Below the pieces are notes generated by a model. It was not told the origin of the DNA. It ran no database searches and saw only the letters and a program-made list of their open reading frames with translations. From Thermodesulfovibrionia bacterium (lineage in GTDB: Bacteria; Nitrospirota; Thermodesulfovibrionia; UBA6902): a DNA stretch of 64,000 bases. Location: NCBI GenBank assembly GCA_030646035.1, contig JAUSMY010000040.1, positions 8,081 to 72,080 of the forward strand, given 5' to 3'. This document shows, in pieces, positions 3,818 through 53,488 of the stretch (position 1 is the stretch's first letter; each line of letters opens with the position of its first letter). A program made the position numbers and the translations under genes.

Positions 3818-4186
3818 GTGAGAATAGCAGGAGTAGATTTACAAAACAATGAGAGGATAGAGATAGGACTTACAAAAATCTTTGGTATAGGGCGGACTGC
3901 TTCCATGAATATACTTAAGGAAGCCGGAGTCGACTTTAACAAGAGAGTCAAGGACATTACTGACGAGGAAGGCATTAAGATAAGGGCTGCTATAGATAAG
4001 GATTTTACGGTTGAGGGTGATCTCAGGCGTGAGGTAGCCATGAACATAAAGAGGCTGCGTGATATAGGCAGTTACAGGGGAACCAGGCATAAACTTAAAC
4101 TCCCTTCGAGAGGGCAGAGGACAAAGACTAATGCCCGTACGCGTAAGGGCGCTAAAAAATCTATTGGCGGGCTTCAGAAAAAATAA
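3818..4186 (+). CDS. rpsM: 30S ribosomal protein S13 (GTG start)
   Basis: 122-aa ORF (M)[28 protein letters not shown]...; GGAG-type RBS upstream; GTG initiation codon. Confidence 0.95.
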
Positions 4187-4239
4187 TATTCACTGAAACA
4201 ATATCCAGATTGTAATTATATATAAGGATTGGAGGATTA

Positions 4240-4626
4240 ATGGCCCAGAAGAAGCGAGGCGGAAAAAAAGAGAAAAAGGCAGTTCATTCAGGTTCAGTAT
4301 TTATTCAGGCTACTTTTAATAATACAATAGTTACAATAACTGATAAATCAGGCAATGTTGTCGCATGGTCTTCAGCAGGTGCCCATGGTTTTAAAGGTTC
4401 AAGAAAAGGCACGCCATATGCTGCGCAGATCACTGCGGAAAATGCCTCAAAGAAGGCGATGGGATTTGGAATGCGCCAGGTCGATATATTTGTCAAGGGT
4501 CCGGGAGCAGGCAGGGAATCGGCGATAAGGGCCGTGTCTTCAGCCGGACTCGGAGTTAATATAATAAGAGATATTACACCTGTTCCGCATAACGGCACAA
4601 GGCCGCCGAAGAGGAGAAGAGTCTAA
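4240..4626 (+). CDS. rpsK: 30S ribosomal protein S11
   Basis: 128-aa ORF with S11 core ([35 protein letters not shown]); RBS ggagg upstream. Confidence 0.95.
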
Positions 4627-5252
4627 TGGCAAGATACACAGGAGCCCTCTGCAGGCTGTGCAGAAGGGAAGGGGAGAAACTCTTCCTTAAAGGTGACAGA
4701 TGTTTTATGGATAAATGTGCTGTAGAGAGGAGAAAGTATCCCCCAGGACAGCATGGCCAGCGAAGAAAGAAGATGTCCGACTATGCCGTCCAGTTAAGGG
4801 CTAAACAGAAGGCTAAGGAAACTTACAGTGTGCTTGAGCGTCAGTTTAAGAAATATTTTTACATGGCGGATAAAATGAGCGGGGTTACAGGAAGTAATCT
4901 TCTTAAAATTCTTGAGAGCAGGCTTGACAATGTTGTTTTCCGTCTTGGCTTTGCTGCAAACCGCAACCAGGCAAGACAGTTAGTGACACACGGCCACTTT
5001 ACCGTGAACGGCAAACCTGTAAATATATCTTCATACCTTGTTCGCGCAGGTGATGTTGTAAGTCCGAGTGAAGCCGGCAAGAAGTTCAAGGTCATTCAGG
5101 AAAACATGGAAAAAGTTCAGCAGAAGGGAGTATTGTCCTGGCTTGAAATGGATATTGAAGGCCTGAAGGGCAAGGTTCTGCATCTTCCTGAAAGAGATGA
5201 AATAGATATTCCTGTTCAGGAACAGCTCATAGTTGAGCTTTATTCAAAATAA
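4626..5252 (+). CDS. rpsD: 30S ribosomal protein S4
   Basis: 208-aa [30 protein letters not shown]... (S4 zinc-ribbon-like N-terminus and S4 RNA-binding domain); start overlaps rpsK stop. Confidence 0.95.
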
Positions 5253-5339
5253 TTTTAATATTCTTAAGTTAAAAGTTATTAATAATTTTTTTAATTTTTA
5301 GCTTTTAACTTGTAACTTTTTTCATATTTTGGAGGACAG

Positions 5340-6425
5340 ATGGAATTCAAAAAAAGAGGTTTTAACATTCCTGAAAGGGTTGTTTTTGATTCAGGCAGCG
5401 ACCATAAATATGGCAAGCTTATCGCCGAACCATTTGAAAGAGGCTATGGCACTACTGTAGGTAACGCATTAAGAAGGGTTTTGCTTTCTTCTATTGAAGG
5501 GGCAGCGGTTACTTCTGTAAAGATTCCTGGAGTGCTTCATGAGTTTTCCACGCTGCAGGGCCTTAAAGAGGATGTCGTTGATCTCATACTCAACATCAAG
5601 CAGCTCAGATTCAAGATGCATTCAGATGAACCCAAGGTTGTAACTATTGAGATAAGCGGCCCCGGGGAGGTCAAGGGCAGGGATATTATCACTGATGCCG
5701 ATGTCGAGGTTCTTACCCCTGATCAGCATATTGCAACCCTTGACAAGAAGATGAAATTTACTGCTGAACTCAAGATTGAAAAGGGCACCGGCTACAGAGT
5801 GCCTGATGAAGTGCACGGTGAGGATGAAACCGTGGATATGATAAAGGTAGACTCTATATTCACCCCTGTCAGGAAGGTCAACTTTTGGATAGAGGGGGCC
5901 AGGGTTGGCCGTTCAACCGACTTTGATAAGCTTATCATGGAGATATGGACTGACGGCAGTATCACTCCTCAGGAAGCTCTTTCCCAGGCCGCAAATATAC
6001 TAAATGAACATATATCTCTTTTTTCCATGGATGAGGAAGTGAAAAAGGAAGTTATAGATACAGATGCATATGCAGATGATATTGTTCCTGATGAAGAAGA
6101 TGATGATAGTTCGTTTGAGGAGATGGATGAAGAGGAAGAACCGAGTTCACTGAGTGTGTTTAATGACAATCTCCTTAAGAGCGTTGATGAACTTGAGCTT
6201 TCAGTACGTTCAAATAACTGCCTTAAGAATGCAAATATATTTACAATTGCCGACCTTGTACAGAGGACTGAGTCTGAGATGCTCAGGACTAAAAACTTCG
6301 GCAGAAAGTCACTAAACGAGATAAAAGAGGTAGTTTTAAAGATGGGCCTGCACTTTAACATGAGGATTGAACCAGATGTGTTGAAGAAACTGGAGAAGGC
6401 CAGAGGAGTCAAGCATGCGTCATAA
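5340..6425 (+). CDS. rpoA: DNA-directed RNA polymerase alpha subunit with long acidic inter-domain linker
   Basis: 361-aa ORF; N-terminal domain (GYGTTVGNALRRVLLSS) and C-terminal domain (ELSVRSNNCLKNANIFTIADLVQRTESEMLRTKNFGRKSLNEIKE); RBS ggagg. Confidence 0.95.
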   Translation: MEFKKRGFNIPERVVFDSGSDHKYGKLIAEPFERGYGTTVGNALRRVLLSSIEGAAVTSVKIPGVLHEFSTLQGLKEDVVDLILNIKQLRFKMHSDEPKVVTIEISGPGEVKGRDIITDADVEVLTPDQHIATLDKKMKFTAELKIEKGTGYRVPDEVHGEDETVDMIKVDSIFTPVRKVNFWIEGARVGRSTDFDKLIMEIWTDGSITPQEALSQAANILNEHISLFSMDEEVKKEVIDTDAYADDIVPDEEDDDSSFEEMDEEEEPSSLSVFNDNLLKSVDELELSVRSNNCLKNANIFTIADLVQRTESEMLRTKNFGRKSLNEIKEVVLKMGLHFNMRIEPDVLKKLEKARGVKHAS

Positions 6426-14188: not shown

Positions 14189-15199
14189 TTAAAGTTTATT
14201 TGTAATCGCTATTATCTCTTCAAGTTTCCTGAGCGCGGCTCCTGAGTCAATGGCCTCTTCAGCCTGTTTAACAGCTCCAAAAAAACCGTTCGCGTGGCCG
14301 CCTGCTATCAGGGCTGCGGCTGAGTTCATTATGGTTATATCCCTTTTGGCGCCGGTTAAGCCTTTGAGTATGTCCATTGTTATCTTCGCATTCTCTTCAG
14401 CTGTTCCTCCGACAAGCTCATCCTTTCCTGCTTTTTTAAATCCTATATCCGAAGGAGACAAGTAATAGGTATTCACAGTCCCGTTTTTCAGTTCAGATAT
14501 TTTTGTATCGTCTGTATTTGTTATCTCATCCAGCCCGTCTTTGCCGTGAACGATAAATGCATGTTCAATGCCGAGGTTACATAGCACATGTGCCATTGTC
14601 TCTGTAAGCGGGTCGCTGAATACTCCGAGCACCTGTCTCTTTGCGCCGGCAGGGTTGGTAAGAGGCCCAAGTATATTGAAGACGGTCCTTATGCCCATCT
14701 CTTTTCGAGGGCCTATTGCGAACTTCATGGCAGGATGGAAGAGCGGAGCGAACATGAAGCCGAATCCGGTCTCCTGAAGGCAACGCTCTACTTTTTTAGG
14801 CTCAAGGTCTATCTTGACCCCGAGGGCCTCAAGAACATCAGCGCTTCCCGACCTGCTTGAGACAGAGCGGTTGCCGTGCTTTGCGACAGGCACGCCGCAT
14901 GCCGATACGACTATGGCAGAGGTAGTTGAGATGTTGAATGTATGCGCCATGTCGCCGCCTGTCCCGCATGTGTCAACCGTATTCAGGGGAGAATTTATTT
15001 TTGTCGCCTTTTCGCGCATGATGACCGCCGCGCCAGTGATCTCATCAATGGTCTCGCCCTTTAATCTCAGGGCTGTCAGAAAAGAGGCTGTCTGCGCGTC
15101 TGTAGACTTGCCCTCCATGATATCCCTCATGGAATCAGCCATCTGGACTTTCGAAAGGTCTCGGCCCTCTATTAACAAACTTATGGCTTCTTTTATCAT
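14189..15199 (-). CDS. trpD: anthranilate phosphoribosyltransferase
   Basis: 336-aa ORF; TrpD hallmarks (FLTALRLKGET, CGTGGD, NRSVSSRSGSADVLEALG). Confidence 0.9.
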   Translation of the reverse strand: MIKEAISLLIEGRDLSKVQMADSMRDIMEGKSTDAQTASFLTALRLKGETIDEITGAAVIMREKATKINSPLNTVDTCGTGGDMAHTFNISTTSAIVVSACGVPVAKHGNRSVSSRSGSADVLEALGVKIDLEPKKVERCLQETGFGFMFAPLFHPAMKFAIGPRKEMGIRTVFNILGPLTNPAGAKRQVLGVFSDPLTETMAHVLCNLGIEHAFIVHGKDGLDEITNTDDTKISELKNGTVNTYYLSPSDIGFKKAGKDELVGGTAEENAKITMDILKGLTGAKRDITIMNSAAALIAGGHANGFFGAVKQAEEAIDSGAALRKLEEIIAITNKL

Positions 15200-15299
15200 T
15201 ACATCCTCCGGTCAAAGTATAGCTTTTGGGACATGCTGATTTTATCATAAAAGAAGTTATTAGGGCGAGGGGAAGTTATTGAAGCTTGAGTTACATAAG

Positions 15300-16259
15300 T
15301 TATGAAGAGGGCGCTGTTTCTACTTTATCTGTCGGTACGCAGACACGGTTTCTGCCGGACTGTTTTGCGATGTAGAGGGCCTTGTCGGCTCGTTCGAGGA
15401 TATCCTTCCACTGGTTGTGGTTGTCGTTTTCGTTAAATGCCGCAACCCCGCAGCTTATGGTAAGGTAGCCCCTTTCACAGCCTTTATGCTCGATCCTTAA
15501 AGACTCTATGGCTTGCCTCAGTTTTTCAGCAACAAGTATTGCCTGAGACTTCACCTGCTCATGCACAATTACGACTATCTCTTCACCGCCCCATCTGAAT
15601 ATGTCATCTGACATCCTGATGACCTCTTTTAATGTGTCAGCAACTTTCTTAAGGAGAATATCTCCTTCCAAATGGCCGTATGTATCGTTATAGTTCTTGA
15701 AGTAATCTATATCGCACATTATCAGCCCGTAATTCTGAAGGTATCTGCATGCACGGTGATGGGACTTCTTAATCGATTCATAAAAGGCATGGCGATTCCC
15801 GATCTCCATGAGGGCATCTGTTCTGGCTATCTCCTCCAGCCTTTTATTTAAATTGCCAAGTTCATCATTTTTTTGTGTAAGCTCCTTTTCAAGGTTCAGT
15901 ATCCTCTCTCCTGCCCTGACCCTGACCTTAAGCTCTGCCACGTCAAAAGGTTTTGCAACGTAATCATCAGCGCCTGCCTCAAGCCCTTCTACTATGTCCC
16001 CTTTTTTGTCTTTGCCGGTAAGCAGTATAAAATAAATATATCCTGTTTTATTCAAGGCGCGTATGTTTTTGCACAATGTGACCCCGTCCATTTCCGGCAT
16101 CATCCAGTCTGCGATTATGAACTTGATCTCTTCCTGCTGGAATATCTCCCACGCTATCATTCCGTTTTCAGCTGCTATTACTTCGTGGCCCCAGGCCTTG
16201 ACGGTCTTCTCCAGGAGTTTTCTTGATATGAGGTCGTCTTCAACAACAAGTATCTTCAT
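15300..16259 (-). CDS. response regulator with REC and GGDEF domains (signature reads GGEEI)
   Basis: 319-aa ORF; REC domain (MKILVVEDD..., phospho-acceptor region IIADWMMPEMDG); GGDEF-family domain with RWGGEEIVV at 15576-15590. Confidence 0.85.
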   Translation of the reverse strand: MKILVVEDDLISRKLLEKTVKAWGHEVIAAENGMIAWEIFQQEEIKFIIADWMMPEMDGVTLCKNIRALNKTGYIYFILLTGKDKKGDIVEGLEAGADDYVAKPFDVAELKVRVRAGERILNLEKELTQKNDELGNLNKRLEEIARTDALMEIGNRHAFYESIKKSHHRACRYLQNYGLIMCDIDYFKNYNDTYGHLEGDILLKKVADTLKEVIRMSDDIFRWGGEEIVVIVHEQVKSQAILVAEKLRQAIESLRIEHKGCERGYLTISCGVAAFNENDNHNQWKDILERADKALYIAKQSGRNRVCVPTDKVETAPSS

Positions 16260-31713: not shown

Positions 31714-34078
31714 TGTTTTATCCGCAGAGCAATTACAGTTAATGAATGCTTACTGGCGCGCGGCAAATTATCTTGCCGTGGGGCAGATATATCTTTATGA
31801 TAATCCGCTCCTGAAGGAACCTCTGAAGATAGAGCACATCAAGCCGAGGCTGCTCGGCCACTGGGGCACGACTCCGGGGCTCAATTTTATTTACGTTCAT
31901 CTCAACAGAATTATAAAGGAGCATGACCTGAATGTGCTCTACATTGCCGGCCCCGGTCACGGCGGCCCTGCGATCGTTGCCAACACTTATCTTGAAGGAA
32001 CGTACAGCGAGGTCTATCCGCATATTTCTCAGGATGCCGACGGGATGAAGAAACTCTTTAAACAGTTCTCATTCCCCGGCGGAATTCCCAGCCATGTAGC
32101 GCCTGAGACACCGGGTTCGATACATGAAGGAGGTGAACTCGGTTATGCTGTTTCTCATGCCTACGGCGCGGTATTTGATAACCCCGGCCTTATCGCTGCC
32201 TGTGTCGTCGGAGACGGAGAGGCTGAGACAGGACCGCTTGCCGCTGCCTGGCATTCAAACAAATTTCTAAATCCTGCGCGCGATGGAGCAGTATTGCCGA
32301 TACTTCATCTGAACGGATACAAGATAGCCAACCCCACACTTTTGGCAAGGATCAGTCATGAGGAGCTTGAAAAGCTTTTTATCGGGTATGGATATAAACC
32401 GTATTTTGTTGAAGGGTCTGACCCCGAAGTCATGCATGAGCTGATGGCTTCGACCATGGATACAGTTTTTGCCGAGATAAAATCGATACAGGATAGTGCC
32501 CGTTTAAATGGGGTTACAAAACGGCCGATGTGGCCTATGATCATTATGCGGACGCCAAAAGGCTGGACCGGCCCGAAGGTAGTTGACGGCAAGAAGACCG
32601 AGGGTTCATGGAGGTCGCATCAGGTTCCGTTTTCAGAAATGACTGGCAATCCCGGCCACATCAAACTTCTTGAAGACTGGATGAAGAGCTACAGGCCTGA
32701 AGAACTTTTTGATGAGAAAGGCATGCTTAAACCCCAACTGTCTGAACTCGCTCCAAAGGGTGAAAGGCGTATGGGCGCAAATCCTCATGCCAACGGCGGT
32801 GCGCTCCTCAAGGCTCTAAAGATGCCTGACTTCCGCGATTACGCGTTAAAGGTAGATGCACCAGGGCAGGTTGAGGGAGAGGCAACACGCGTTATGGGAT
32901 ACTTTCTGCGGGATATAATGAAGCTCAATATGAAGAGCAGTAACTTCCGTGTCTTCGGCCCGGATGAGACAGCATCAAACCGCCTCGGCGCGCTCTTTGA
33001 AGTGACAGACCGTGTATGGATGTCTGATACGATTCCTGAAGATGACCACCTCTCTCCTGACGGGCGCGTGATGGAGATACTGAGCGAGCATACGTGCCAG
33101 GGCTGGCTTGAGGGCTATCTTCTCACAGGCAGGCACGGGCTTTTCTCATGCTACGAGGCATTTATCCATATCATTGACTCGATGTTCAACCAGCACGCAA
33201 AGTGGCTGAAGGTCACGTCAAAGGAGATACCATGGCGCCGTCCTATTGCGTCTCTTAATTATCTCCTGACCTCGCATGTATGGAGGCAGGACCATAACGG
33301 CTTCAGCCATCAGGACCCGGGCTTTATCGATCATGTGGTGAACAAGAAGGCGGACATCATCCGCGTTTATCTTCCGCCTGACGCAAACACACTTCTCTTT
33401 GTGACAGACAAATGTCTGCGAAGCCGTAACTTCATAAATGTTATTGTCGCTGGCAAACAGCCTGCACCTCAGTGGCTTGACATGGATGCTGCTATCAAGC
33501 ACTGCACATACGGGATAGGCATATGGGAATGGGCAAGCAATGACAGGGGTTCGGAGCCGGATGTTGTCATGGCATGTGCCGGTGATGTCCCTACACTTGA
33601 GACACTTGCCGCAGTGGACATCCTCCGCCAGCAGGTGCCTGATCTAAAAATACGGGTCATCAATATTGTTGACCTCATGACGCTCCAGCCGAAAGAGGAG
33701 CATCCGCATGGGCTCTCGGACAAAGACTTTGACACTCTCTTTACTAAGGATAAGCCGATAATATTTGCGTATCATGGTTATCCATGGCTTATCCACCGCC
33801 TCACCTACAGAAGGACGAATCACAAGAACCTCCATGTCAGGGGATACAAAGAAGAAGGCACCACCTCAACTCCGTTCGATATGGTCGTCTGTAATGACCT
33901 GGACCGTTTCCACCTTGTTGCTGATGTGATAGACCGCGTAGCGGATCTCGGCTCTGTCGCAGCTTACACTAAACAGTTTGTTCGTGATAAACTCATTGAG
34001 CATAAGCAGTACATCAAAAAGTACGGCCAGGACATGCCTGAGATCCGTGAATGGACATGGAAACGAAATAACAGCTGA
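31706..34078 (+). CDS. xfp: xylulose-5-phosphate/fructose-6-phosphate phosphoketolase
   Basis: 790-aa ORF; phosphoketolase signature regions ([15 protein letters not shown]; ThDP fold); overlaps ackA by 8 nt. Confidence 0.9.
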
Positions 34079-34098
34079 AAAATATTAAGGAGGATTAA

Positions 34099-34545
34099 AT
34101 GAGAAGAGCAACGGTAAAAATTATTTTAGGTATTCTTGTAATTGCAATAATGAGCCTTGGGGCATCAAGAAGCGAAGCTCTGCACGAATACTTCAAGAGC
34201 CTTGATATAAACAATGACGGAAAGGTAGATCTCCAGGAATTTTCAGGCGAGATGAAGAAGCAGGTCTTTGATGAGCTTGATGCTGATAAGAACAAAGAAG
34301 TGACTGAAAGTGAATGGGGCAGCGTCCCTGATATCACTGAAGAGAAAGAGCATGAAAGTGTTTTCAAGAAGATAGACAGGGACACAGACAGCAGGATCAC
34401 CTTTTTTGAGTTTTCAGATTACGCGGAAAGCAACTCAAACATAATGAAGGCTTTTATGGGCCTGGATATGGATAAGAACAATCTCCTCTCTCCGGATGAG
34501 GTCTCATCCAGACCGATGTTCAGGTTGATAACGGTGCATTTTTAA
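34099..34545 (+). CDS. secreted EF-hand calcium-binding protein
   Basis: 148-aa ORF with signal peptide and four EF-hand-like loops (DINNDGKVDLQEF, DADKNKEVTESEW, DRDTDSRITFFEF, DMDKNNLLSPDEV). Confidence 0.6.
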   Translation: MRRATVKIILGILVIAIMSLGASRSEALHEYFKSLDINNDGKVDLQEFSGEMKKQVFDELDADKNKEVTESEWGSVPDITEEKEHESVFKKIDRDTDSRITFFEFSDYAESNSNIMKAFMGLDMDKNNLLSPDEVSSRPMFRLITVHF

Positions 34546-34565
34546 GAGGCGATATATCTGACCAA

Positions 34566-35198
34566 ATGGAACCTTTGACCTTTTTCATCTACGCATTCAC
34601 ATCTATCTTTGTCATTGTAAATCCGGTGAGCGGCATACTCACGTTCATCGCGTTGACTAACGGGATGGATCTTTCTGCAAAGAAAGAGATAGCCAAACGC
34701 TCTGTGACGGTCGCCTGCATAACAGCGATAGCTTTTGCCATTGCCGGAGAGGCCATCCTGAGGTTCTTTAATATTACCGTGGACAGTCTGCGTGTCGCAG
34801 GAGGGGTGCTGCTCTTTTTGATAGCCATTGACATGCTCCATGGAAGGGTCTCCAGAGAGAGCGTGACGCCTGAGGAAGTCAAGGATGCTTCAAAGAGGGA
34901 TGATGTCGCCGTGTTCCCGCTTGCTATTCCTCTGCTCACAGGCCCGGGCGCTATCACTACGGTGATCGTATTGATACGAACAGGCAAGACATGGGACTTG
35001 AAGGTCATAACACTCCTTGCCATTTTACTGACCTTTTTTCTCTCTTATCTTTTTTTTAGATTCGCTGACAAGATCAACAAGATAATGGGTGTGACCATCT
35101 CTCTGGTGATAACGCGGTTGATGGGCCTGATGCTGGCGGCTATAGCTTCCAATTTTATCGCTGAAGGGTTGTGGAATATATATAAGTCGTTCAATTAA
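34566..35198 (+). CDS. MarC family integral membrane protein
   Basis: 210-aa ORF; six TM segments; N-terminal FxxxxxxIFVIVNPV pattern typical of MarC/UPF0056. Confidence 0.7.
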   Translation: MEPLTFFIYAFTSIFVIVNPVSGILTFIALTNGMDLSAKKEIAKRSVTVACITAIAFAIAGEAILRFFNITVDSLRVAGGVLLFLIAIDMLHGRVSRESVTPEEVKDASKRDDVAVFPLAIPLLTGPGAITTVIVLIRTGKTWDLKVITLLAILLTFFLSYLFFRFADKINKIMGVTISLVITRLMGLMLAAIASNFIAEGLWNIYKSFN

Positions 35199-35226
35199 TT
35201 TTAGATAAAAGGATATGGTATAACCA

Positions 35227-36621
35227 ATGTCAATTAACATCTCTTTTCACGGCGGTGTCGATACTGTAACCGGCTCGTGCCATCTTCTTGAAGCCGGAGG
35301 TTTGAATATCCTTGTTGACTGCGGGCTCTTTCAGGGCGGTTCTGAGATCGATGAGAAAAACTATGGCGAGTTCGGTTTCGATCCTTCCTCTATCGATTAC
35401 CTCCTTGTCACGCACGGGCATCTTGACCATTGCGGACGAATTCCAATCCTTGTCAAGAAAGGTTTTAAGGGGAAGATAATTACCACCGCTGCAACCGGCG
35501 AGATCGCAAAGGTAATCCTGCTTGATTCCGCGAAGATACAGGAAGAGGATTTTGAGAGATGGAAGAGGATAAAGAGGCGCAGGGGACAGATACAGCGGGA
35601 GCCTCTATATACAACTCTCGATGCTGTTGACGCACTTGTGCATTTTGATCCAAGCGCACGATATGAGACTCCGATCAAATTAAACGGAAACGTGACCGCA
35701 ACATTCAGGGACGCCGGGCATATATTCGGGTCTGCATTCATAGAGATCAAGGTTAAAGGTTTTGGAACGATACTGTTTTCCGGCGATCTCGGCAACAGGG
35801 GCAAGCCGATACTTAATGACCCTTCATTCCCTGAAAGAGCTGATGTGGTCATACTTGAAAGCACTTACGCAAACAGGAACCATAAGAATATTGATGACTC
35901 AGTAGCTGAATTCCGTCAGGCGATAATCGATACATTCAAAAGGGGCGGCAATGTCCTTATTCCTTCATTTGCATTGGAGAGGGCTCAGGACCTGCTTTAT
36001 TTCCTGAGAGAATTCAGGCAGAACGCGGAGATACCCGCCTGCACCGTCTATCTTGATTCTCCTATGGCGATCAATGTTGCCGATATCATGCACAGGCATC
36101 CTGAACTTTTCGATCTTGAAGCAGCCGGGCTGTTGCAGAGAGGAATAGACCCTTTCATGTTCCAGGGTTTAAAGCTCACAAGGCATCCTGAAGAATCAAG
36201 AAAGATAAATTTTATAAAGAGCAATGCCATTATCATTGCGGGTTCAGGCATGTGCAACGGCGGAAGGATAAGCCATCATCTTAAGCATAATATATGGAGA
36301 AAAGAATCTTCAGTGATATTCGCGGGCTATCAGGCTGCCGGCACACTTGGGCGGAAGATAGTTGACGGCAACAGGAGAGTGAAGATCTTTGATGAGCCTT
36401 TCAAGGTAAACGCAAAGATATATACGATAGGCGGTTTTTCAGCGCATGCTGACAAGGATATACTTTTAGACTGGCTGCGGCACTGCAAAGGGCTTGATAA
36501 GGTCTTCCTCGTACACGGCGAGCGCGACAGCATTGAGGGTTTCAGGAAAGAGATAATGAAACAGAAAATATCCGCGAAGGTTAATGTCCCGCATCTGCAT
36601 CAGTCGTTTTTGCTTGGGTGA
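35227..36621 (+). CDS. MBL-fold beta-CASP ribonuclease-type metallo-hydrolase
   Basis: 464-aa ORF; metallo-beta-lactamase motif HGHLDHCG plus beta-CASP region. Confidence 0.8.
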   Translation: MSINISFHGGVDTVTGSCHLLEAGGLNILVDCGLFQGGSEIDEKNYGEFGFDPSSIDYLLVTHGHLDHCGRIPILVKKGFKGKIITTAATGEIAKVILLDSAKIQEEDFERWKRIKRRRGQIQREPLYTTLDAVDALVHFDPSARYETPIKLNGNVTATFRDAGHIFGSAFIEIKVKGFGTILFSGDLGNRGKPILNDPSFPERADVVILESTYANRNHKNIDDSVAEFRQAIIDTFKRGGNVLIPSFALERAQDLLYFLREFRQNAEIPACTVYLDSPMAINVADIMHRHPELFDLEAAGLLQRGIDPFMFQGLKLTRHPEESRKINFIKSNAIIIAGSGMCNGGRISHHLKHNIWRKESSVIFAGYQAAGTLGRKIVDGNRRVKIFDEPFKVNAKIYTIGGFSAHADKDILLDWLRHCKGLDKVFLVHGERDSIEGFRKEIMKQKISAKVNVPHLHQSFLLG

Positions 36622-36845
36622 GCCGGTCTCTATTGCTTTCATTGGGTTCGATTTTGCTGACTTCTGCTTTGAAACACATCTTGTTTATTAATTCAAAATA
36701 TCTTCAGCGGTAGTATGTGGGTTAATTTTTTATCTTGAAAAATCAGGCAGTAATGGGGTTGCATTTATCCATCTTTATTTTTTTAAACTAATAACTGATG
36801 GTGCTCTTTTGCATGTATGGTATATTAGTACCATGATGAGGTAAA

Positions 36846-37130
36846 ATGAAGGCAGAACTTGTTTATCATGAGAAGAGATATTTTGAGGACAGTACTTTTC
36901 AGGAGATAAAGATATGGAGTGTTCCTGAAAGCAGAGACAAGCCTCATGGCATCAAATACTCTTTTGCCTATATTGCTGATAATAAAAGGGTGCTGGGATA
37001 TGACAATGCAGAATATAAAGGAGACCACAGGCATTACAAAGGCAGAGAGTATCCTTATATATTTCATAGCCTGGATAAGTTATGGCAGGACTTTAACATG
37101 GACATAGAACGATTCAGGAGGCAGAGATGA
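36846..37130 (+). CDS. small protein, first gene of a toxin-antitoxin-like two-gene cassette
   Basis: 94-aa ORF; His/Tyr-rich C-terminus (DNAEYKGDHRHYKGREYPY); overlaps downstream gene by 4 nt. Confidence 0.4.
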   Translation: MKAELVYHEKRYFEDSTFQEIKIWSVPESRDKPHGIKYSFAYIADNKRVLGYDNAEYKGDHRHYKGREYPYIFHSLDKLWQDFNMDIERFRRQR

Positions 37131-37504
37131 GAGTAAGAGATATAAAAATATCCATAAAAACGCAGGATGAATTATTAGATGAGGTAAAAGGTGTCTGGGG
37201 AAAACTGGAAAAAGGTAAGAAGGTTTCAAGGCACGAGGGGATATCTTTTGAAAGTCTTGATGCCATGAGAAAGGTTCTGACAGAGAAGAGGCTGAAGATA
37301 TTGAAGACGATCAAGAAAGAACATCCGCAATCAATTTATCAACTTGCCAGCCTGCTCCACAGGGATATCAAGAATACATTTAATGATGTCCGGCTTCTGG
37401 AAGAGATGGGGCTTATAGATCTGAAGAAGACCAAAGACGGCAGAGAGAAGTGTACTCCTGAAGTGTCATATGACAGGATAGTGCTTGAGATCCCGGTTGG
37501 GTAG
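37127..37504 (+). CDS. putative winged-helix DNA-binding protein, second gene of the cassette
   Basis: 125-aa ORF; predicted HTH around LKTIKKEHPQSIYQLASLLHRDIKNTFNDVRLLEEMGLI. Confidence 0.45.
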   Translation: MRVRDIKISIKTQDELLDEVKGVWGKLEKGKKVSRHEGISFESLDAMRKVLTEKRLKILKTIKKEHPQSIYQLASLLHRDIKNTFNDVRLLEEMGLIDLKKTKDGREKCTPEVSYDRIVLEIPVG

Positions 37505-37510
37505 AGGGCG

Positions 37511-38620
37511 CTAAAACCACTTCTTCCTCTTAAAGAAGAACAGCATCGTAATTGCCACAGTAGCCATTAGACCCAATGCAAATGGATAACCGTAGTACCA
37601 GTTGAGTTCAGGCATATTGAGAGGGCTGTTTGCCGTATTGAAGTTCATGCCGTAGAGTCCTGCGATGAAGGTCAGCGGTATGAATATCGCCGCGAAGATG
37701 GTGAGGACCTTCATTACTTCGTTCATCCTGTTGCTTATGCTTGAGAGGTATACATCAAGCATGCCGGAGATCATGTCCCGATAAGTCTCCACTGAATCAA
37801 TGACCTGTATCGTGTGGTCGTAAAGGTCGCGCAGGTATATGCTGGTGGATTCTTTTATAAGCGGAGTCTCTTCCCGCTCCAGGTTTCCTATCATCTCACG
37901 CAGGGGCCATACTGATTTCCGCAGAAATATCATCTCTCTTTTCAATAAATGTATCTTCTGCAGTGTTTCAGGCCTCGGATTCGTGACGAGCTCCTCTTCT
38001 ATCAGCTCTATATCTTCACCGATATTTTCAATGACCTTGAAATAGTTATCCACTACGGCATCTATCAAGGAATACGCGAGGTAATCAGCGCCTGCCTTTC
38101 TTGTGCGCCCTTTATTAAGTTTGATCCGGTCTCTGATCGAGTCAAAAATATCCCCGATATTTTCCTGGAATGTTATGACGTAGTTATTGCCGATGATAAG
38201 ACTTACCTGCTCAACATCGACATACTTGGTTTCTTCGTTGTAAGTGAGCATTTTGAGGACGATGAATATGTAATCGTCAATAATATCCATCTTGGGGCGC
38301 TGTTCTGTATTAAGGAGATCCTCGATGACGAGGGAATGGATATTGTAATGTTCGCCCAGTTTCTCTGCTATAGATACATCATGAAGCCCGTCAACATTGA
38401 TCCATGTGACCGTCGGCCTTTCTTTGAATGGGAAGCAGTCTTCAACTTTGTGGACTTCTTTTATCTCAACATTGATCTCATCATAATCAATTAAAGTTAT
38501 CTTTACTTCTTCAGTCTTTTTTTCGCCGACAAATACCGGAGCTCCGGGAAGAAGCCCGGATTTCGTAGATCTCTTTGAACTCTTGTATCTTCTTACTCTG
38601 TGTTTAACAGGTTTGGCCAT
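37511..38620 (-). CDS. corA: magnesium/cobalt transporter CorA
   Basis: 369-aa ORF; two C-terminal TM helices with the YGMNF signature. Confidence 0.88.
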   Translation of the reverse strand: MAKPVKHRVRRYKSSKRSTKSGLLPGAPVFVGEKKTEEVKITLIDYDEINVEIKEVHKVEDCFPFKERPTVTWINVDGLHDVSIAEKLGEHYNIHSLVIEDLLNTEQRPKMDIIDDYIFIVLKMLTYNEETKYVDVEQVSLIIGNNYVITFQENIGDIFDSIRDRIKLNKGRTRKAGADYLAYSLIDAVVDNYFKVIENIGEDIELIEEELVTNPRPETLQKIHLLKREMIFLRKSVWPLREMIGNLEREETPLIKESTSIYLRDLYDHTIQVIDSVETYRDMISGMLDVYLSSISNRMNEVMKVLTIFAAIFIPLTFIAGLYGMNFNTANSPLNMPELNWYYGYPFALGLMATVAITMLFFFKRKKWF

Positions 38621-38628
38621 TGGTCTGC

Positions 38629-39192
38629 TTATAGCTTTAAGAAATTCCTCAGAAGGTCCATCCCTGCCTTTGTCAATATCGATTCAGGATGAAACTGCAC
38701 GCCTTCTATAAGAAGCTCTTTATGCCTAATCCCCATTATCTCATCCATGTCAGTCCATGCGGTTATCTCAAAGCAATTGGGAAGTGTCTCGCGCTTAATG
38801 AGGAGTGAATGGTATCTTGTTGCTTCGAAAGGATTTGGCAATCCTTTAAATATGGTTTTGCCGTCATGATGTATCATTGACGTCTTGCCGTGCATAAGTC
38901 TTGGCGCGTTTATTATGTCTCCGCCAAACGCGGCGCCTATTGACTGGTGGCCGAGGCATACGCCGAGTATGGGTAATTTGCCTGCGAAATGTTTTATGAC
39001 CTCAATTGATATACCCGCTTCTTTAGGCGTGCATGGTCCCGGCGAGATGACTATCTTTCCAGGGCTCAGCATCGCAATCTCAGGAATAGTTATCCTGTCA
39101 TTCCTAAAGACCTTTACATCTTCACCCAGTTCGCCGAAGTACTGAACCAGGTTATAAGTGAAGGAATCATAGTTGTCGATCATTAATAACAT
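38629..39192 (-). CDS. trpG: anthranilate synthase component II (glutamine amidotransferase)
   Basis: 187-aa ORF; class I GATase triad context (GVCLGHQ, HPES). Confidence 0.85.
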
Positions 39193-40697
39193 TAAAGTTT
39201 CTCCGCCATCTCTATCGCCTTGAACATGCCTTTTGCCTTATTCACTGTCTCCTGATATTCCATTTCAGGGTCAGAGTCTGCCACTATGCCTGCCCCTGCC
39301 TGGATGTATGCTTTATCATTCTTAAATATGATAGTCCTTATTGTTATACACATATCCATATTACCTGAAAAGTCAAAGTACCCTAAACATCCGGCATACG
39401 GCCCGCGCCTCGTGGGTTCAAGTTCTTCGATTATCTCCATAGCCCTTATCTTCGGCGCTCCAGATACGGTGCCTGCAGGGAATGATGCCCTGAGCACGTC
39501 AAATGAGTCAAGCCCTTTTTTGAGCTTGCCCACAACATTTGAGACTATATGCATCACGTGCGAGTATTTCTCAATTGTCATGAGTTCGGTCACTTTTACG
39601 GAACCTGTGACCGCAACCCTTCCGACATCGTTTCTGCCAAGGTCAACGAGCATTATATGCTCAGCCAGTTCCTTCGGGTCGGCGATGAGCTCTTTCTCCA
39701 ATGCGATATCTTCCTCTTTGGTCTTGCCCCTTCTTCTTGTGCCTGCGATAGGCCTCAGTTCGATAGTGTCGTCTTCTACCCTTACGAGTATCTCAGGCGA
39801 TGAGCCGACAAGCGTGCTTCTGCCTGTATTCAGGTAGAACATATACGGCGATGGGTTGATGACCCTAAGCGCCCTGTAAGCGTTCATGGGGTTGATGTCT
39901 GTCTCTCTTTCAAAGTTCTGTGATAATACGACCTGGATGATATCACCGGAGTTGATGTATTCTTTTGCCTTTTCAACAGCCTCTTTAAATCCTTCTTTCC
40001 CGAATGAACTTTTTATCTCTGTTTTCTGTTCTGTCCCGGTATTATTGCTCTTTCTGTTCTTTGGCGGGACAGCCTTTGTCATCAGTTTTTTTACTATGGC
40101 ATTTATCTTTTCTTCAGCCTCTCGGTATGCCTCTTCAGGGTCTTTTCCCTCTGTGTATGCGTTGGATATGACCTTTATTGTCTGGCTCAGGTTATCAAAG
40201 ACAAGAAGCGTGTCAGTGAACATCAGAAAGATATCAGGGTGGTCAATGCCCTTATGGCGCATGTCAGGCAGCTTTTCAAAATGGCGCACTGTGTCATATC
40301 CGATATAGCCGACAAATCCTCCGTGAAACCTCGGGAGGCCTTCTGTCTTTACAGGCCTGTACTTTTTCAGTTCAGCTGATATCACCTCAAGCGGGTCGTG
40401 CTTGAACTTAACCTTCTCTTTTTCTGAACCGCGTTTGATAGTGATGTTTCTGCCCTTCCCCTCGATTATCATTGAAGGGGAGCTTCCGAGGAAAGAGTAT
40501 CTTGCCCATTTCTCGCCGCCCTCGATACTCTCAAGCAAGAAACCTGCCTTAGACTTGAGCTTCAGAAATGCGGAAAGCGGGGTCTCAAGATCGGCAAGGA
40601 TCTCCCTATAGACAGGGATCAGATTGCCTTCCTTTGTCTTCTTTTTAAATTCCTCTATGTCAGGGTGGAGCATTTGACAAACCCACTCAATATTCAT
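39192..40697 (-). CDS. trpE: anthranilate synthase component I
   Basis: 501-aa ORF; chorismate-binding domain ([11 protein letters not shown] region); abuts trpG; exact start uncertain. Confidence 0.88.
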
Positions 40698-40749
40698 TAT
40701 GATTTTAACTGTCTATTATAGAATAAAAAGAGTTAAAAATTGTTTTATT

Positions 40750-40824
40750 GCGGGTGTAGCTCAGTGGTAGAGCACAACCTTGCCAAGGTTGGGGTCGAGA
40801 GTTCGAGCCTCTTCACCCGCTCCA
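40750..40824 (+). tRNA. tRNA-Gly (anticodon GCC)
   Basis: Cloverleaf folded by hand: acceptor GCGGGTG/CACCCGC, anticodon loop cuuGCCaa, T-arm GGTTCGA-type (GTCGAGAGTTCGAGCCTC), encoded CCA. Confidence 0.85.
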
Positions 40825-40834
40825 TTAAAGATCA

Positions 40835-40876
40835 AAGGAGTTAGTCCCTTCAAATCGGGATTAACTCCTTCTTTTT
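40835..40876 (+). terminator. Rho-independent terminator after tRNA-Gly
   Basis: 14-bp stem aaggagttagtccc / gggattaactcctt (one G-U pair), loop ttcaaatc, then cttttt. Confidence 0.7.
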
Positions 40877-42684: not shown

Positions 42685-42760
42685 GGCGACGTACCCAAGT
42701 GGCTAAGGGGGAGGTCTGCAAAACCTTTATTCAGCGGTTCGAATCCGCTCGTCGCCTCCA
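42685..42760 (+). tRNA. tRNA-Cys (anticodon GCA)
   Basis: Cloverleaf folded by hand: acceptor GGCGACG/CGTCGCC, anticodon stem-loop gaggt-cuGCAaa-acctt, T-arm AGCGGTTCGAATCCGCT, encoded CCA. Confidence 0.8.

Positions 42761-53411: not shown

Positions 53412-53488
<77 letters not shown>

Follow-up and report, generated by a model that had tools for sequence, protein, structure and literature searches.

Within the TumE-TumA superfamily, the cassette formed by tumE and the gene that overlaps its 3' end is probably a functional toxin/antitoxin pair, a type II toxin-antitoxin (TA) module with the toxin gene first. The cassette is found in a 64,000-nucleotide stretch of DNA, referred to here as the window, which means the whole stretch that was analysed. 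The upstream gene encodes a 94-aa protein of the TumE family, and the downstream gene encodes a 125-aa winged-helix protein of the HVO_A0114 family. An earlier note on this DNA had described the architecture as toxin-antitoxin-like, and the matches to TumE (PF20126) and HVO_A0114 (PF25212) support that description. Toxin-antitoxin systems of this family were first reported in 2023, the pair is one of the ordinary members, and RefSeq already names pairs of this type. The significance of the pair beyond correct annotation is small: the small ORF can be named as a TumE-family toxin, and its neighbour as a candidate antitoxin of the HVO_A0114 type. The features of the locus are collected in Table 1.

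Table 1. Features of the cassette and its surroundings, in positions of the window.
Feature	Position	Strand	Basis or remark
148-aa protein gene	34099-34545		N-terminal hydrophobic (signal-like) segment
Beta-CASP/metallo-beta-lactamase RNase gene	35227..36621	+	Pfam Lactamase_B, Beta-Casp, RMMBL
Upstream control region	36791..36845	+	homology with close relative L081 resumes after a non-homologous gap (blastn)
Candidate operator, perfect inverted repeat ATGGTA-tattag-TACCAT	36817..36834	.	over the -10 element
Extended -10-like element TGgTATATT, no good -35	36818..36826	+	read from the sequence, aligned to the family consensus
Mini-ORF ATG ATG AGG TAA (ATGATGAGGTAA), three codons	36833..36844	+	at the position of the relatives' predicted leaderless tumE start
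Shine-Dalgarno (SD) motif GAGG for tumE	36838-36841	+	within the mini-ORF; read from the sequence
tumE, 94-aa TumE-family putative toxin	36846..37130	+	Pfam PF20126, formerly DUF6516
Strong SD AGGAGG for the antitoxin gene	37116..37121	+	in the tumE 3' end, 5 nt before the ATG at 37127
Putative TumA-type antitoxin and autorepressor, 125 aa, winged-helix	37127..37504	+	Pfam PF25212 HVO_A0114
corA	37511..38620	-	TIGR00383, 337 bits
tRNA-Gly(GCC)	40750-40824
tRNA-Cys(GCA)	42685-42760
tRNA-Pro(GGG)	53412-53488

Both ORFs that had been read in the sequence, with their 4-nt overlap, are present, and the shared bases are ATGA. Chance ORFs are ruled out for both genes, which have hundreds of homologues at 50-98% identity. 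The beta-CASP RNase gene ends 224 nt 5' of the cassette, and the stop codons of corA and the 125-aa gene lie 6 nt apart. The RNase-type gene had been called convergent with the pair, which proved to be wrong because it lies upstream on the same strand as the cassette; only corA is convergent. In the window, the cassette is flanked by housekeeping genes (the beta-CASP RNase gene, corA and trpG/trpE), and no mobile-element genes are present among the ORFs listed over 5.5 kb around it (34.5-40 kb).

Several other features of the window were characterised. The beta-CASP RNase matches the NCBIfam model NF045584 (type VII CRISPR-associated Cas14) with 409 bits against a cutoff of 800, and of the 612 positions of the model, the match spans only 2-427. 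A second match, to aCPSF1, has 275 bits. On these matches, it appears to be a stand-alone nuclease that is homologous to the nuclease module of Cas14 and is not Cas14 itself. The 148-aa protein has a counterpart in L081 that adjoins MarC and has only weak or faint matches to EF-hand families. The three tRNA genes are the sole Rfam/ARAGORN matches in the window, and no riboswitch or sRNA family was detected in the window with Rfam.

TumE is the family that the earlier note could not assign to the small protein, and a profile search supplied it. The 94-aa protein matches Pfam PF20126 with 60.4 bits (GA 23.4, E 1.8e-16), and the match covers profile positions 2-81 of 81. None of the NCBIfam models matches it. 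About 209 close homologues were found, every one with PF20126. A profile search of 1.84 billion cluster representatives recovered 1758 TumE clusters at E <= 1e-3, of which 557 reach E <= 1e-10, and most TumE clusters in that search are 90-105 aa long. Members as divergent as 31-55% identity to the window protein all share D53, H61, H63 and F83, and nearly all share E20, W24, Y38, N54, K58, G59, E68, Y71, L79 and D82. The His/Tyr-rich stretch noticed earlier is present (GYDNAEYKGDHRHYKGREYPYIFH) and is the conserved YDN..KGDHRH core of the family. Because its residues are kept across these divergent members, the stretch is not a compositional quirk, and its reading as a compositional oddity or a metal-binding tail is ruled out. 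The AF2 model of TumE, built on 25 sequences, has a pLDDT of 93.1 and consists of six strands followed by a C-terminal helix. No protein in PADLOC-DB v2 matches TumE, and no structural analogue of the 94-aa protein was found in the PDB; thus, neither collection offers an independent hint of its chemistry.

The 125-aa protein matches Pfam PF25212 (HVO_A0114) with 89.8 bits against a GA of 27.6, and Pfam MarR with 28.8 bits. Together with the three-helix and beta-hairpin core of the AF2 model, these matches bear out the earlier winged-helix prediction. About 292 homologues were found, all with PF25212, and one of them, from a Nitrospirae MAG, is 98% identical. The AF2 model of this protein is poor, with an overall pLDDT of 54.8 and values of 70-85 in the core (approximately residues 50-100). 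The modelled core (residues 44-113) has helices at 44-50, 53-65, 70-77 and 81-93 and strands at 97-100 and 110-113. Residues 1-46 have a pLDDT below 50 despite a strongly conserved sequence, which includes K11, E28 and H36-E37-G38-I39-S40. The N-terminal extension (residues 1-36) is conserved and lies outside the Pfam domain. The conserved N-terminal segment of approximately 45 residues is likely the toxin-binding segment. Compared with the PDB, the protein has weak profile similarity to the winged-helix domains of Csa3 and ArsR, and in PADLOC-DB v2, it has only generic winged-helix similarity to the C-terminal domains of CasR/Csa3.

TumE was scanned against one genome per species (185,579 species), which yielded 424 relatives, and the best 80 of these (49-72% identity) were examined as loci. 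Their hosts are Nitrospirota, Brocadia, Scalindua, Desulfobacterota, Nitrospinota, Omnitrophica, a Bacteroidetes MAG and a Methanococcoides MAG. Among these best 80, the partner lies directly downstream in all 77 TumE loci that have room for it, on the same strand and with 35-73% identity; the remaining three end at a contig boundary within 165 nt. The pair is therefore co-conserved, and TumE without a partner was seen in 0 of the 77 loci. Of 81 loci, 78 have tumE overlapping the partner gene, by 4 nt in 40 (39 ATGA and one GTGA) and by 11 nt in 20. The distance matrices of the two proteins are also correlated (Mantel r = 0.64, permutation p = 0.001).

For the reciprocal test, the partner protein served to retrieve 80 metagenomic loci, one of which has no room upstream. 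TumE is directly upstream of the partner in 64 of these loci and is missing in 15 of 79, which represent approximately six or seven distinct situations. TumE was never seen without the partner, and the partner can persist on its own, as would be expected of a toxin and an antitoxin. This asymmetric dependence supports the assignment of the toxin role to TumE and the antitoxin role to its partner.

The orphan HVO_A0114 genes are 66-78% identical to the window's gene, and several of them directly follow another TA-like pair. In five loci (L105, L107, L108, L116 and L129), this is a HigB/HigA-like pair, and in two (L123 and L144), it is an AbrB- and PIN-like pair. Only an AbrB-like ORF precedes the orphan in L115 and L137. 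The orphan locus L128 retains a frameshifted remnant of TumE (...YSFAYVVNHERVVGYDNYEHKGDHRHYRDK...).

The cassette is mobile and occurs in varied surroundings. In a Nitrospirae MAG, it separates selA/xseAB from selB; in a Planctomycetes MAG, it lies close to MNT/HEPN pairs; and in Brocadia, its neighbours are an integrase/primase island and a HicA gene. Three MAGs have two copies each (L022/L029, L035/L065 and L027/L048). On a Mycetohabitans megaplasmid, TumE is followed by HVO_A0114, and the pair adjoins a ChpB/MazE pair. Copies are present in 79 PLSDB plasmid records, and on proteobacterial plasmids the gene order is again TumE first. The family extends across bacterial phyla (Nitrospirota, Planctomycetota and Desulfobacterota) and into archaea (a Methanococcoides MAG and Haloferax pHV4). 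A patchy, mobile and multi-copy distribution, together with a toxin that depends on its antitoxin but not the other way round, is the generic picture of a type II TA module, and the pair agrees with it. In E. coli RefSeq, the pair is present in 18 of 5426 complete genomes, where PGAP names the two proteins 'toxin-antitoxin system TumE family protein' and 'HVO_A0114 family putative DNA-binding protein'. The relative with the 98%- and 94%-identical copies calls its partner gene only 'MarR family transcriptional regulator', and in the searched collection its small ORF carries no name. A scan of IMG/VR viral contigs with the antitoxin alignment gave no relatives.

The Escherichia phage phiSTEC1589-Stx1c (L091) carries a TumE/HVO_A0114 pair at 15113-15761, with a TumE that is 41% identical to the window's. 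This pair adjoins antirepressor and Rha genes, and an inverted repeat (TGTTGTTAtccTTAACAACA) lies between its TTGACA -35 and SD. In the Thermodesulfovibrio MAG L055, a 47%-identical beta-CASP gene (4134-5489) is located approximately 0.5 kb downstream of TumE/HVO_A0114, on the other side of the cassette than in the window. This vicinity may be a coincidence or a loosely conserved neighbourhood.

The close relative L081 is a 99.7-kb contig (JACQZE010000010.1) of a groundwater Nitrospirae MAG (GCA_016207885.1). It shares with the window the gene order XFP, EF-hand protein, MarC, beta-CASP, TumE, HVO_A0114, CorA, TrpG and TrpE, at 86-91% nucleotide identity (blastn). The blastn blocks are 33677-36625 and 36791-40875 of the window. 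The sole non-homologous stretch is the gap between them, where 165 nt of the window (36626-36790) are replaced by 713 nt of L081 (2952-3664). The L081 insert encodes two proteins on the opposite strand, one of 83 aa that is CopG_antitoxin/BrnA-like and one of 87 aa without a Pfam match. The pair had been described as sitting alone in its gap; this is true of the window, and in L081, a second TA-like pair lies in the same gap. The presence of this other pair marks the gap upstream of the TumE cassette as a site where such a pair was gained or lost, and on this comparison, it looks like a hotspot for the gain or loss of TA cassettes.

A generic promoter and terminator scan of the locus gave nothing above chance and no terminator. 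The window promoter was not called because its -35 is poor, and the promoter assignment rests on a family comparison in which the 60 nt upstream of tumE were aligned for 74 non-identical loci. The consensus of the 74 loci is ATATATGGTATAATATAACCAAT, with the ATG directly after it. The consensus contains a TATAAT -10, often in the extended TGn form (TGGTATAAT), which lies inside an inverted repeat. A TTGACA-like -35 is present at 16-18 nt in 52 of the 74 loci. The -10 ends 7-9 nt before the tumE ATG in 59 of them and 19 nt before it in the window copy. An SD-like motif precedes tumE in 2 of 74 loci, and an SD for the partner, mostly GGAGG-like, lies inside the tumE 3' end in 72 of 73 distinct loci. 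The short spacing from -10 to ATG and the lack of an SD predict a toxin mRNA that is leaderless, or nearly so, in most family members. The window copy looks like a derived form that gained approximately 10 nt carrying the SD and the three-codon mini-ORF.

The inverted repeat is formed by GG...CC positions around the -10, as in TGATGGTATAaTATACCATCA of L032 and GGGTGATaagATCACCC of L069. In 71 non-identical loci, the mean inverted-repeat score of the 32 nt before tumE is 5.39, compared to 3.63 for upstream control windows and 3.98 for shuffles (Mann-Whitney p ~1e-17). The L081 repeat has one mismatch in its left arm (ATGGCA). The candidate operator of the window is only 6+6 nt long and lies over an AT-rich -10 whose sequence is in any case partly self-complementary.

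A mechanism can be proposed from these features. By homology with tested TumE proteins, TumE would stop growth through an inhibition of translation and might act as an RNase. Translation as the target, possibly by way of RNA cleavage, is taken from work on a different subcluster and is less firm. The likely active face of the toxin would be the acidic/His cluster of D53, N54, K58, D60, H61, H63 and E68. The HVO_A0114 antitoxin would neutralise TumE by direct binding, likely through its N-terminal segment. As a dimer, alone or with TumE, it would repress its own promoter through the inverted repeat over the -10. Translation of the antitoxin would be coupled to that of tumE through the ATGA overlap and driven by the strong internal SD, and the ribosome-binding context of tumE appears weak or absent. 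The coupling, the strong antitoxin SD and the weak tumE context would together favour an excess of antitoxin although its gene lies downstream. It is conceivable, if doubtful, that the toxin-to-antitoxin ratio of the TumE/HVO_A0114 subtype is set by the mode of translation initiation, as the upstream sequences might suggest. If this were true, conditions that favour leaderless (70S-type) over SD-led initiation would tip the balance towards the toxin, and the cassette would be a sensor of translation state.

Other explanations of the pair were considered. The two genes could form a non-toxic regulatory pair, in which the winged-helix protein acts as a transcription factor, with the TumE-fold protein as its co-repressor, sensor or modulator and with no growth arrest. 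In favour of this, the tested toxins come only from a different TumE subcluster, the subtype of the window is shorter, with six strands and one helix, and DeepFRI mostly predicted DNA binding for TumE clusters (PMC10584680). The winged-helix protein can also function without TumE, as its solitary occurrence in 15 of 79 loci indicates. This explanation implies that the subtype diverged in function from the tested TumE toxins, and it is unlikely. The polar core of D53, N54, K58, H61 and H63 is kept over 31-55% identity and looks like a catalytic or ligand site, not a protein-contact surface alone. Moreover, the cassette has no fixed neighbours to regulate, and a small protein that was never found partnerless, is multi-copy and lies among TA modules and mobile elements is typical of toxins.

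Two further explanations concern the role of the cassette and its neighbours. Its main role could be anti-phage defence (abortive infection) or the stabilisation of mobile elements, which would mechanistically still be toxin-antitoxin and is not mutually exclusive with a TA module. Copies by the Brocadia integrase/primase island, on plasmids and in the E. coli Stx1c prophage point in this direction, as does the neighbouring TA-like pair that comes and goes at the same intergenic spot. We regard this as the main role with quite low probability, given that TumE has no PADLOC match, a scan of IMG/VR viral contigs gave no close relatives, and the window cassette sits among housekeeping genes with no mobile-element genes in the ORFs listed for 34.5-40 kb. 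The earlier note had also raised an ordinary regulator of neighbouring genes, which here would be a local regulator of corA or of the beta-CASP RNase gene with an incidental small ORF. Apart from adjacency in the window, and the beta-CASP gene near the pair in L055, little speaks for it, and it is very improbable. Among more than 80 loci, corA and the same flanks adjoin the pair only in the close relative L081, and a beta-CASP gene is otherwise near the cassette only in L055. The small ORF is itself conserved and overlaps the HTH gene in nearly every locus. Regulation of corA or the RNase gene is effectively refuted and was rejected because these neighbours are not conserved.

We prefer the toxin-antitoxin explanation. 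The comparative data add three modest points to the published work on TumE. The arrangement with the toxin gene first and a winged-helix partner is strictly co-inherited and widespread, with examples in Nitrospirota, anammox Planctomycetota, Desulfobacterota, haloarchaeal plasmids and an E. coli Stx prophage. The asymmetric dependence of the two genes supports their roles as toxin and antitoxin. The promoter/operator layout is conserved, and from it a toxin mRNA without a leader and an antitoxin driven by its SD are predicted. The E. coli Stx1c prophage copy would be a convenient experimental model for this subtype.

The description of TumE-TumA dates from 2023 (Durairaj et al., Nature 2023, PMC10584680). 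Toxicity in E. coli was shown for six gammaproteobacterial DUF6516 proteins, each of them neutralised by its cognate neighbour (PMC10584680). One tested TumE lowered 35S-methionine incorporation, and RNase activity is a proposal only (PMC10584680). TumE is neutralised by diverse unrelated antitoxins (PMC10584680), and TumA is therefore a role rather than a single family. The tested pairs belong to subcluster 1a, in which TumE is downstream of a small partner, one partner type being a remote RelB homologue (PMC10584680). The published fold is of the alpha+beta type, an antiparallel sheet of seven strands against which two helices pack, with no PDB homologue (PMC10584680); the model of the window's TumE is one strand and one helix short of it. 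The window's pair resembles TumE-TumA in its end-to-end match to the TumE HMM, in its conserved bicistron with a predicted DNA-binding partner, and in the lack of a PDB homologue. In contrast to the tested pairs, TumE comes first here. The protein has 94 aa and is modelled as six strands plus a single helix, whereas the constructs of the tested toxins imply roughly 110-130 aa. The tested partners are small, and one type of them is RelB-like, whereas the partner here is a 125-aa winged-helix protein of another family. We infer the function of this subtype, since the tested members come from a different TumE subcluster, whose gene order is the reverse and whose antitoxins differ. In the searchable literature, there is no tested member of the subtype with the toxin gene first and a winged-helix partner, and no mechanistic paper on TumE after 2023 was found there.

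A closer likeness is found in Haloferax volcanii pHV4, where HVO_RS02390/HVO_RS02385 are of the same two Pfam families, with TumE first and overlapping genes. The pHV4 TumE is 37% identical to the window's, and the locus lies among IS elements. The partner gene there (HVO_RS02385, 'transcriptional regulator') is presumably the namesake of PF25212 HVO_A0114. Unlike the window's pair, the pHV4 pair is archaeal, its partner has 155 aa, the overlap is 20 nt, and its upstream repeat is of the TGTTG...CAACA type. The searchable literature contains no experimental work on the pHV4 locus, and a search for 'HVO_A0114' returned nothing.

HigBA, HicAB and MqsRA are type II TA modules in which the toxin gene is also first. 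The cassette is like them in this order and in the DNA-binding domain of its antitoxin, with autoregulation presumed. Their toxins differ from TumE, which has no sequence or fold relationship to them. The cassette also differs from these modules in the position of the winged helix, which occupies the central and C-terminal part of the antitoxin, and in its putative toxin mRNA, which is predicted to be leaderless in most relatives.
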